Below, one piece after another: positions 23,856-25,944 of a stretch of DNA of 32,000 nt; position 1 is the stretch's first letter, and every line of letters starts with the position of its first letter. The notes beneath the pieces were generated by a model, which worked only from the letters and a program-made list of their open reading frames with translations, had not been told where the DNA came from and made no database searches. Origin of the DNA: Methanocaldococcus jannaschii DSM 2661 (lineage in GTDB: Archaea > AGJL01 > Methanococci > Methanococcales > Methanocaldococcaceae); contig NC_000909.1 of NCBI RefSeq assembly GCF_000091665.1, forward strand, positions 1,026,629-1,058,628, in the 5' to 3' direction. A program made the position numbers and the translations under genes.

Positions 23856-24386
23856 ATGGACAAAAAATCCAAATTAATAAACCTGCTAAAAGAGGTTGGT
23901 TGTATAAGATTTGGAGAATTTATCTTAGCCTCTGGTAAAAAAAGTAACTACTACATAGACATAAAAAAAGCCACCACAAACCCAGAAATTTTAAAGTTAG
24001 TTGGAGAAATTATTGCTGAGCAAATAAAGGATGAAGATGTAAAAGTTGCTGGAGTAGAGCTTGGTTCTGTCCCTATAGCTACAGCTGTCTCAATTATTGC
24101 TCAAAAACCACTATTAATTGTTAGAAAGAAACCTAAGGATTACGGAACTAAAAATAAGATAGAAGGAGAGCTAAAAGAAGGAGATAAGGTTGTTATTGTG
24201 GAGGATGTTACTACAACTGGAGGAAGTGTGCTAAAGGCAGTTAAAGAGATTAGGGAAAATGGTGGAATTGTTGATAAAGTTTTTGTTGTTGTTGATAGGT
24301 TAGAAGGAGCTAAAGAAAACCTACAAAAAGAGAATGTTGAATTAATCCCATTAGTTACTGTTAAGGAGCTACAATCCACTCAATAA
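23856..24386 (+). CDS. pyrE: Orotate phosphoribosyltransferase
   Basis: PRPP-binding motif KVVIVEDVTTTGGS, 176 aa, GGTGA SD. Confidence 0.92.
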   Translation: MDKKSKLINLLKEVGCIRFGEFILASGKKSNYYIDIKKATTNPEILKLVGEIIAEQIKDEDVKVAGVELGSVPIATAVSIIAQKPLLIVRKKPKDYGTKNKIEGELKEGDKVVIVEDVTTTGGSVLKAVKEIRENGGIVDKVFVVVDRLEGAKENLQKENVELIPLVTVKELQSTQ

Positions 24387-24404
24387 ATCTAAAAACCTCT
24401 TAGT

Positions 24405-24487
24405 CCATAGGGGAAACCCCTATTGGGATACTCCCCGTCCATTAAGTTGCTCCTTTCAGGAGCAATTAATGTCCATTTTAAGCTTAT
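24405..24487 (-). mobile_element. GC-rich hairpin element, copy E3 (core 24405-24476)
   Basis: Its reverse complement aligns with E4 as ATGGACATTAATT-[GCTCC TGAAA GGAGC]-AACTTAATGGACGGGGAGTATC-[CCAATAGGGG TTT CCCCTATGG]. It is flanked by a 32-nt direct repeat with 1 mismatch (24373-24404 / 24488-24519). Confidence 0.8.
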
Positions 24488-25944
24488 AATCCACTCAATA
24501 AATCTAAAAACTTCTTAGTTTTCTCTTTTTTAACCTTACCAAATTTCTCTAATTTGCTAACATCTACATTTTTATCCTTTAAAATTTCTTTTATTGGTTC
24601 TATGAGTGCAATTTTTTTAAGTAAGTCTTCAATATCCTTCTTTTTGAAGTTAAATCTTTCCACAGCATCCCAGTCGTGAATTAAGTATAAAGCAACTCCA
24701 CCAATGTTCTTTAAAGGAATCTGATATTTTGGCAACTCCTCCTCCAATTTAAATTTTAAATCTAAAACATCCACACAATTAATCCCATCAACACTCATCC
24801 AAGATAAAAATCCTCTCTGTGGAGTAATCATAATAGATGGGAACAAATTACTCCTTGCCCTCTCATCTGGTGTTTTGTAGAGATAAAATTTAAAAACATC
24901 TTCAGAAAATCTCTTTATCAAAATATCTTTTGATATTTTTTTAGATAATTCATTTTTAATCTTAATTGCCTTTTTTAACGGTTCAATTGGTTCTCCATCT
25001 CTATATAATCCTTCTTTTTCCAAAATCTCTTTAAGTTCAAGCTCTTTTAATTTTCTTTCTTCCATGCATCTAACGTCTAAAATTCCCCCACTTATATCTG
25101 CCTCTTCTCTAAATAATAAGCAGAGTTCTAAATATCTGTTAAGGTATTTTTTTTCTTCTTCATTAAGCAATTTATCAATTTTTTCATTTATTGCTTTTTC
25201 AATCTCATCTTTGTAAGTGTTGAGATAGCCGATAGCTAATACTCTCCTAACATACTGGTCATCTATAATCTTATTTTTTGAGAAATTCCTTTTTATTGAT
25301 GTAATTATAGCATTTCCAAACTTCTCTTTGATGTATTTCTCATAGTTTTTGTCTTCAACTTTAATTCTCTTAAATTCTCTCTTTCCTTTATCAATAACTA
25401 TAAGGGATATTGTATAGGATGTTAAAATCCCTCTACCCTTTGGTTCTAAGATATCTAAAAATTCTTTATATGTTGTGACTAAATAAGGTGGAAATTCAAA
25501 CATTATCTTTTTATAAGAACCATCTAAAGGCAAGTTTGGAGGTAAATTTATGTTTCCAATATCTTCAGTTAAATGGGCTAAGGCAATTTTATGGGCAACT
25601 AAGGCATGTCTAACCCTCTCTAAGATACCTTTTTTCTCACTTGCTATTCTTCTCAAATATGTGCTGTAGCTTGCAATCTCTTGTAATCCTTCACTATCAT
25701 AACCTCCTTTCAACTTTCCAACATTTTTATATGGGGAATCAAACTCTAAAAACTCCATTTTTGATTTTAAATCTTGTAAAATCTCTAAGTTTTTTTCTAA
25801 GGTTAATATAATATCAGATAATTTAGTTTTATCAATTGTTTTGTTTTTTATTTTACCAACTACCTCTTTTAATTTATCGTTAATCTCATTTAAAGAATCC
25901 AAAAATTCATTGGCATTCTTTATTAAATTGCTTGTGCTCTCCAT
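24484..25944 (-). CDS. Hypothetical 486-aa protein (N-terminal coiled coil), unknown function
   Basis: Long ORF with coherent composition. Its start overlaps the 3' end of cca by 38 nt. I recognise no motif. Confidence 0.7.
   Translation of the reverse strand: MESTSNLIKNANEFLDSLNEINDKLKEVVGKIKNKTIDKTKLSDIILTLEKNLEILQDLKSKMEFLEFDSPYKNVGKLKGGYDSEGLQEIASYSTYLRRIASEKKGILERVRHALVAHKIALAHLTEDIGNINLPPNLPLDGSYKKIMFEFPPYLVTTYKEFLDILEPKGRGILTSYTISLIVIDKGKREFKRIKVEDKNYEKYIKEKFGNAIITSIKRNFSKNKIIDDQYVRRVLAIGYLNTYKDEIEKAINEKIDKLLNEEEKKYLNRYLELCLLFREEADISGGILDVRCMEERKLKELELKEILEKEGLYRDGEPIEPLKKAIKIKNELSKKISKDILIKRFSEDVFKFYLYKTPDERARSNLFPSIMITPQRGFLSWMSVDGINCVDVLDLKFKLEEELPKYQIPLKNIGGVALYLIHDWDAVERFNFKKKDIEDLLKKIALIEPIKEILKDKNVDVSKLEKFGKVKKEKTKKFLDLLSGL

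Follow-up and report, generated by a model that had tools for sequence, protein, structure and literature searches.

How a small hairpin repeat could come to lie between two convergent genes, and leave each of them with an intact 3′ end of its own, is the question raised by a locus of Methanocaldococcus jannaschii (Mj) to which an earlier note, made from the sequence alone, had drawn attention. The locus belongs to a stretch of 32,000 nucleotides (nt), hereafter the window, whose positions serve as coordinates below; positions on the chromosome contig are prefixed C1. Here a GC-rich, non-coding element of 76 nt, E3 (24405-24480), bracketed by a direct repeat, separates pyrE from a gene of the DUF530 family. 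We found that E3 entered an 18-nt overlap between the pyrE and DUF530 genes and duplicated 38-39 nt, such that the left copy of the duplication now terminates pyrE and the right copy terminates the DUF530 gene. The features of the locus are as follows.

23856-24386, plus strand: pyrE, an orotate phosphoribosyltransferase-type phosphoribosyltransferase of 176 amino acids (aa), identified by its open reading frame (ORF), Pfam PF00156 (E 2e-13) and orthologues
24367-24404, no strand: left copy of the target duplication, 38 nt, strict core 24370-24404, containing the pyrE stop codon (24384-24386)
24405-24426, plus strand: module A hairpin, from the DNA fold and the 59 A modules on the chromosome
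24427-24436, plus strand: linker GATACTCCCC, conserved in the form GGGATACC(N), from the alignment and the list of A modules
24437-24474, plus strand: module B hairpin of 13 base pairs (bp) with one bulged G, from the DNA fold and covariation
24475-24480, plus strand: A/T-rich tail ATTTTA, which separates module B from the right copy
24481-24519, no strand: right copy of the target duplication, 39 nt, strict core 24485-24519, containing the stop codon of the DUF530 gene (24484-24486)
24484-25944, minus strand: DUF530 family gene, 486 aa, convergent to pyrE, identified by its ORF and Pfam PF04409 (E 2e-72)

The repeat around E3 that the earlier note had described was recovered by a repeat search, as two segments of 35 nt (24370-24404 and 24485-24519) identical at 33/35 positions (94%), with a 32-nt core (24373-24404 and 24488-24519) that contains one mismatch. 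A gapped local alignment, beginning with AGCT, lengthened the repeat to 38 nt on the left (AGCTACAATCC..., 24367-24404) and 39 nt on the right (AGCTTATAATCC..., 24481-24519), at the cost of one indel; its score of 61 compares with a median of 15 and a 99th percentile of 30 at 2000 random sites of the same geometry. When the 32-mer was searched with up to three mismatches through the whole genome (about 1.74 Mb, in three contigs of 1,664,970, 58,407 and 16,550 bases), it was found in just two places, both at E3. The final six codons of pyrE and its TAA stop sit within the left copy, whose last 18 nt are now non-coding and include the single C/T difference, at 24397. The stop codon of the DUF530 gene lies in the weakly similar part by which the right copy is extended, and runs into the beginning of the 35-nt core. 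The minus strand of the left copy still encodes ..KRFLDLLSGL-TAG; this residual frame and the stop positions are as the earlier note had them, according to our ORF reading.

A search of the locus against 30 relatives provided the comparison with empty sites. In five congeners (G011, G010, G016, G012 and G005) the pyrE-side and DUF530-side matches overlap by 36-37 nt, and alignment showed a single repeat copy, with the element absent. The pyrE and DUF530 frames of these five genomes share 18 nt (TTACAATCCACTCAATAA), both stops included, with pyrE ending in ..ELQSTQ-TAA and the DUF530 gene, on the other strand, in ..LSGL-TAA. The two genes are adjacent in the distant congeners G003 and G009 as well, and an 8-nt overlap could be read in G003. 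Hence the convergent 3′ overlap, which had been predicted at about 20 nt, does exist in the empty-site relatives, and we encountered no close relative's empty site that lacked it. The single copy in the empty sites, as opposed to two in Mj, also agrees with the proposal that the insertion copied the shared segment and left both ORFs intact.

Because the five single-copy sites all carry the 18-nt overlap, the ancestral state is a convergent gene overlap that was resolved by the insertion. The right Mj copy, moreover, has TTA where the relatives have TTG. This change is a silent leucine substitution in the DUF530 gene, and it would turn a glutamine codon of pyrE into a stop if the genes still overlapped; it shows the release from dual coding. 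A dual-coding segment has been split into two single-coding segments. As for G010 and G011, their empty state may be ancestral or may reflect a secondary, scarless loss.

The long duplication is not peculiar to this site. Nine of the approximately 15 full-length Mj copies that combine modules A and B have a locus-specific flanking repeat of their own, with a score of at least 29 (control 99th percentile, about 30). We also scanned the chromosome for direct repeats of at least 20 nt lying 50-450 nt apart, with CRISPR arrays removed: 24 of the 26 that were found bracket hairpin modules, and these are 20-50 nt long (median about 33, by ungapped extension). Of 17 A-module ends scored at 16 loci, 16 had the foot of hairpin A within 0-6 nt of a repeat copy. 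The association holds at intergenic, promoter and transfer RNA (tRNA)-end targets too. The repeat is part of the target, as the earlier note had supposed, and not of the element, being specific to each locus and replaced by other locus-specific repeats at the other copies.

Polymorphic insertions told the same story. We compared the main contig of G010 with 1.2 Mb of G011 (94.3% identical), which yielded 97 indels with at least 30 extra nt in one genome; those of 40-700 nt were classed by sequence, and the duplication length was taken as the overlap of both flank alignments in the empty genome. Besides hairpin-module inserts, two families of miniature inverted-repeat transposable elements (MITEs) were represented.

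MITE-I, terminal repeat GGACTTTCGCAG: 22 events between G010 and G011, duplication median about 4-5 nt
MITE-II, terminal repeat GTTGTGTGCAAAA: 21 events between G010 and G011, duplication median 2 nt
Hairpin-module inserts: 13 events between G010 and G011, duplication median 24 nt and up to 53 nt, with 9 of the 13 at 21 nt or more

The very same method thus recovers ordinary short duplications where there are any, as in the MITEs. Long duplications are a trait of the hairpin class alone, in which their lengths range overall from 12 to 53 nt. The data thus support the long target duplication as the rule for hairpin elements. With regard to the earlier statement that the duplication at E3 far exceeds the norm for insertion sequences and MITEs, the length (38-39 nt) stands, but the feature belongs to the element class and not to this site in particular. 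By comparison with the empty site, the element and the duplication came in together, the A-foot end being flush or nearly so with its repeat copy and the opposite end carrying a variable A/T-rich tail; in some copies a few filler bases occur at both junctions. The MITE families of these two genomes, 43 indels together, measure about 90-110 nt (terminal repeat AGGACTTTCGCAG) and about 105-112 nt (AGTTGTGTGCAAAA), and have TA-type duplications.

What, then, is E3? Folded as single-stranded DNA, it forms two imperfect hairpins, each with one bulged base (-17.9 kcal/mol, z -6.5 relative to shuffled sequences). Its module A reads CCATAGGGG-AAA-CCCCTAT(T)GG with a bulged T, and the foot of this hairpin abuts the left copy with no filler. 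The consensus of module A is CCATAGGG..CCCTATTGGGATACC (n = 59, all chromosomal), and its stem variants (GGGC/GCCC, GGAGG/CCTCC, GGGG/CCCC and GAGGGG/CCCCTC) are always complementary. For hairpin B, 98% of the cells are paired across 13 aligned copies, with four pairs altered on both sides and a covariation score that was matched by 0 of 500 shuffles; the B-stem variant of E3, GCTCC/GGAGC, is unique among the 13. Compensatory changes, in other words, maintain both hairpins. The linker C-run (CCTCCC, CCCCAC or CCCGAC) covaries with the A stem (GGAGG, GGGG or GGGC, respectively; alignment columns 25-35), which suggests an alternative pairing or a copied half-stem.

In the Mj genome, E3 gave 48 BLAST matches and 39 nhmmer hits, including the approximately 15 full-length A+B copies mentioned above, whose tails vary from 0 to 30 nt. 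The family is modular, A being joined to B, C, D or F, and E to B, with clusters in both orientations. Module A is abundant (8-49 copies) in 13 Methanocaldococcus genomes and present only at background level in G002, G003, G009, G013 and other genera of the order. E3 is, accordingly, an A+B type of modular hairpin repeat confined to a Methanocaldococcus subclade. Most likely, judging by description, the family corresponds to the MJRE repeats. Suyama, Lathe and Bork are said to have reported MJRE1-3 in FEBS Lett in 2005 as small palindromic multi-copy repeats of M. jannaschii, mostly extragenic, some of them lying in genes without breaking them. The E3 family is likewise small, palindromic, non-coding and present in many copies in the same organism; long variable target duplications are not described for MJRE in the abstract or in the citing papers that were consulted.

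Rfam contained no family matching E3, and in its surroundings only the neighboring CRISPR repeats were matched. These form an array (22751-23608) in which a 30-nt repeat (Rfam CRISPR-DR13) occurs about 13 times, directly upstream of pyrE and about 800 nt from E3; one repeat scores higher with DR39, on the opposite strand. Counted by eye across the chromosome, some 7 of the 59 A modules are no more than 2.5 kb from a CRISPR array, where about 4 would be expected. A scan for bacterial-type terminators and promoters, in this archaeal host, returned nothing at E3, and contigs from RNA libraries cover the whole region without ends or depth structure, which leaves them neutral as to transcript ends or a small RNA.

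The window contains further copies of these modules. The gene that follows the DUF530 ORF codes for the CCA-adding enzyme, and just upstream of it there is a second A+B copy, in reverse orientation (27284-27356, region 27241-27373). The annotated GTG start of the CCA-adding enzyme gene falls within the 17-nt duplication that flanks this element (TTGTCAAAACAATCACC / TTTTCAAAACAATCACC). Hairpin A directly adjoins the right copy of the duplication, and the opposite end of the element carries an A/T-rich tail of 26 nt. No flanking repeat was detectable around an A+B-like copy at 16536-16603 (C1:1043164-1043231, minus strand), and a solitary module A occupies 19222-19243 (C1:1045850-1045871). Outside Mj, two polymorphic hairpin inserts (G010:1508164 and G011:1064464) went into a module E already in place, immediately behind its ..CATCAAAA terminus, with duplication of the last 21-24 nt of that module. 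Such placement hints that module E offers a preferred entry point and that clusters of modules grow in a polar fashion. At C1:97164, C1:402876 and C1:873515, three flanking repeats adjacent to module E have the look of tRNA gene 3′ ends (e.g., ..GGTGCCGAGGGAGGGAT); should this be right, tRNA gene ends would be further places that the elements have entered and duplicated.

Occupied states of the E3 locus differ among species. The left junction (..CTTAG(T) joined to CCAT..) is common to Mj and G006, and the right junction, with an extra T in the right copy, to Mj, G006 and G015. A different left junction is found in G015 and G001, where module E comes straight after ..TTACAAT, and pyrE is three codons shorter, ending on a TGA borne by the element. 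The pyrE/DUF530 junction of G001 amounts to about 300 nt and includes an HgcC-family RNA (RF00062, 90.5 bits; G001:C1:46629-50045, 1907-2033); the two HgcC genes of Mj itself (C1:951852 and C1:1622879) have a TATA-like box upstream and no flanking repeats. In G006 the target is present in three partial copies: pyrE terminates in the first, and the element separates the second from the third, an arrangement which suggests that the site was duplicated a second time. Trees of pyrE and of the DUF530 gene both return the pairs (Mj, G001), (G015, G006) and (G010, G011), about 12% apart and with an unresolved branching order. Since junctions are common to Mj, G006 and, on the right, G015, the insertion is old, its module content having turned over and its junction pattern being mosaic with respect to the flanking genes. 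Modules would have been exchanged or nested, the same junction holding different module sets in sister species.

The repeat copies, too, bear traces of events later than the insertion. Both Mj copies at E3 have AGCT and AAATCT, where relatives have AATT and AAATCC in one or both copies. At another locus (Mj 460260 / G010 26674), Mj and G010 present the same junctions and G011 is empty; here about six lineage-specific differences in the duplicated gene start each occur in both copies of a genome. At a further site (Mj 461330 / G011 13489), Mj and G011 have the insert and G010 lacks it. Altogether about seven polymorphic sites were readable against Mj, two with the occupied-Mj pattern and five empty in Mj, and at an eighth the Mj flanks are about 1 kb apart. 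The simplest reading of these patterns is that repeat copies are homogenized by gene conversion and that deletion between them restores an empty site, although the same patterns could result from alleles exchanged between lineages. That the copies at E3 are so alike is partly due to selection on their coding parts and to concerted evolution, not to recency, and because the copies evolve in concert, their identity cannot date the insertion.

We looked for an enzyme that could account for the insertions. Reverse transcriptase (RVT_1, PF00078) and Y1_Tnp (PF01797) had no match in the Mj genome, which is 99.9% complete, even though control genomes did match, and the IS30-type integrase domain rve had no match in the genome either. 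The only matches to DDE_Tnp_1 came from a 154-aa open frame in a 928-bp repeat with two identical copies (C1:15827-16754 and 1596825-1597752). This repeat has no full-length transposase frame, and its ends (AACCGTAG... and ...TGATGGGA) are unrelated to the hairpin element; beside one of its copies we noticed a member of a repeat family of about 360 nt, with about eight copies (e.g., at 138471, 276165, 580978 and 986455).

Nor was an autonomous partner apparent. Comparison of the Mj genome with itself revealed no multi-copy segment of at least 350 nt bounded by A modules, and no A-bounded composites were found in G010 or G011. A paralogous family of about 1.1 kb located near some elements was rejected as a mobile partner, as it is an ATPase gene family. 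For the polymorphic inserts, no donor of more than 94% identity was found, the best paralogue being at 80-94%. In G015 (G015:C1:131719-132725 and 145588-146584), A-X-A' composites occur in pairs, about 740-870 nt apart, one pair inverted and one direct, which could bound a larger, possibly autonomous unit.

Known systems resemble the E3 class in part. Similar in terms of the footprint are the insertions with long target duplication in bacteria, which show locus-specific repeats of tens to hundreds of bp, single in empty relatives, with no transposase; some of the repeats overlap gene 3′ ends, and no archaeal case was left after screening (Nobusato et al. 2000; Furuta, Abe and Kobayashi 2010, PMC2853133). 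E3 shares with them a locus-specific duplication of more than 30 bp, single in an empty-site relative, and the lack of a mobility gene, but those inserts are kilobase-sized restriction-modification units, whereas the E3 class consists of non-coding hairpins of 70-150 nt in dozens of copies. Long and variable duplications are also generated by some insertion sequences, namely IS1630 of the IS30 family (19-26 bp) and IS1549/IS1634 of the IS1634 family (8-514 bp) (PMC2853133, PMC2266710), and for the latter no model exists (PMC2266710). Unlike the E3 class, these elements are autonomous, with terminal inverted repeats and a DDE transposase; the E3 class has no terminal inverted repeats, and no rve or DDE enzyme with matching ends was found for it in the genome.

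In its architecture, on the other hand, the E3 class recalls REP/BIME, REPIN-RAYT and the palindromes derived from IS200/IS605, with which it has in common GC-rich imperfect hairpins, a bulged base, clusters in two orientations and a position at gene ends. Yet REP/REPIN and IS200/IS605 palindromes make no target duplication and depend on a Y1 HUH transposase, whereas long duplications flank most E3-class copies and PF01797 is absent. The MITEs of the genus are, like the E3 class, small, non-coding and polymorphic between sister genomes, but only they possess terminal inverted repeats and duplications of 2-5 nt. A classical MITE was rejected, given that the ends of E3 (CCATAGG... / ...AATGTCCA) are not inverted repeats, that no insertion sequence with such ends was found, and that the 38-39 nt at E3 are not a short, fixed duplication (2-10 bp). 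A retroposed, target-primed element was rejected too, on account of the missing PF00078 match. By its combination of traits (a miniature non-coding hairpin in many copies, without terminal inverted repeats or a cognate enzyme that we could find, in an archaeal host), the E3 class differs from all of these systems, none of which fits in full.

Overall, we consider it probable that a hairpin repeat entered the gene overlap and duplicated 38-39 nt by way of widely and variably staggered breaks followed by fill-in, the breaks being what we infer from the product. The element would be attached where each target strand has a single-strand break, the two breaks lying 12-53 nt apart at variable spacing, and filling in of the single-stranded stretches would create the direct repeats. 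The foot of hairpin A would be joined flush with, or within about 6 nt of, one repeat copy, and the other end would receive the tail. The enzyme would act in trans, and no classical transposase class fits. After insertion, the copies would be kept similar by coding selection and gene conversion, and the long repeats would permit scarless loss.

Several observations weigh against this scheme. Genome searches found neither an enzyme nor an autonomous partner element. Duplication lengths spread about four-fold, which is unexpected for an integrase with a fixed ruler, and the unexplained filler bases that can occur at both junctions fit repair or replication better than a precise transesterification. 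The best paralogue of a polymorphic insert is 80-94% identical and none is a near-identical donor, which means that the set lacked a truly recent event to dissect and that its junctions are not pristine; concerted evolution, in turn, prevents the use of repeat identity to date the event. The variable distance between the breaks argues against a rigid integrase ruler and in favor of uncoupled nicks, of the kind seen with IS1549/IS1634, or a replication/repair route. We put forward, quite tentatively, the bolder possibility that hairpin repeats are moved by a route not described before, either a new trans-acting integrase or a replication-flap pathway, with breaks 12-53 nt apart, in a manner that spares gene ends and enables scarless excision and gene conversion.

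The best rival to staggered breaks is insertion coupled to replication, which strikes us as unlikely. Single-stranded DNA of the hairpin, e.g., a cut-off flap, would anneal through its A/T-rich tail to the lagging-strand template and prime synthesis, the upstream fragment would displace a variable length, and the structured flap would escape Fen1 and be ligated, the duplication being the displaced stretch (a pseudo-Okazaki route); related, microhomology-mediated template switching might act in a similar way. Such a scheme would accommodate the variable length of the duplications (12-53 nt), the filler bases at both junctions, the lack of a transposase class in the genome, and the flush A end with an opposite tail that is A/T-rich and at times seems to bear a weak likeness to what lies upstream of the duplication. 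Duplications of similar size that originate from flaps are known from yeast rad27 mutants. The present data, however, offer it no direct support. The 59 A modules exhibit no strand bias along the chromosome (about 28 plus and 31 minus), although this is a weak test, the replication origins not being known; a perfect 42-nt duplication comes with a 6-nt tail unlike the target; and it would be left unexplained why only the hairpin class is mobilized.

It is improbable, in our opinion, that the duplication was not made at insertion at all, i.e., that the element was imported together with one gene end by homology-facilitated illegitimate recombination, or that a later, selected local duplication repaired the gene ends. 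The mosaic of junctions among species (the left one of Mj and G006, module E with its TGA in G015 and G001, the right one of Mj, G006 and G015) conflicts with the trees of the flanking genes, as import would have it. Nevertheless, both Mj copies carry the same lineage-specific bases, the opposite of what alleles from two lineages would show. Throughout the genome, long repeats are tied almost exclusively to hairpin modules, and they are so at intergenic, promoter and tRNA-end targets, where no gene needs repair. A two-step scenario would further require that an interrupted gene of an essential pathway persist until the second step.

We regard as very unlikely an off-target integration by Cas1-Cas2 or a casposase-like enzyme, attacking the two strands a repeat-length apart. 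Formally, a single round of spacer integration has the same repeat-insert-repeat layout, duplications in Mj have a median (about 33 nt) close to the 30-nt CRISPR repeat, and the genome has many CRISPR arrays, including the one 800 nt from E3. A spread of 12-53 nt, however, seems too wide for a molecular ruler, and inserts of 73-145 nt or more exceed spacers of about 35-45 nt; the targets lack a repeat- or leader-like motif, and nothing in these data ties the elements to cas genes. Casposon duplications are 14-15 bp. Finally, the idea that the flanking repeat belongs to the element or is a chance similarity is refuted by its uniqueness to the locus, its single copy in empty sites and a score far above random.

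A long, variable target duplication made by a miniature element, in a genome without a transposase to match, points to an insertion mechanism outside the current prokaryotic catalogue. M. jannaschii is genetically tractable. One caution concerns dating, as insertions of the hairpin class are reversible and their copies change in concert. For the host, the duplication gives each neighboring gene its own intact end and makes of a dual-coding overlap two stretches that are free to evolve, which may explain how such elements are tolerated in dense genomes. If the route is truly an undescribed one, its geometry would let elements into gene ends that overlap or abut, and likewise into start codons, promoters and the ends of tRNAs, with none of these being inactivated.

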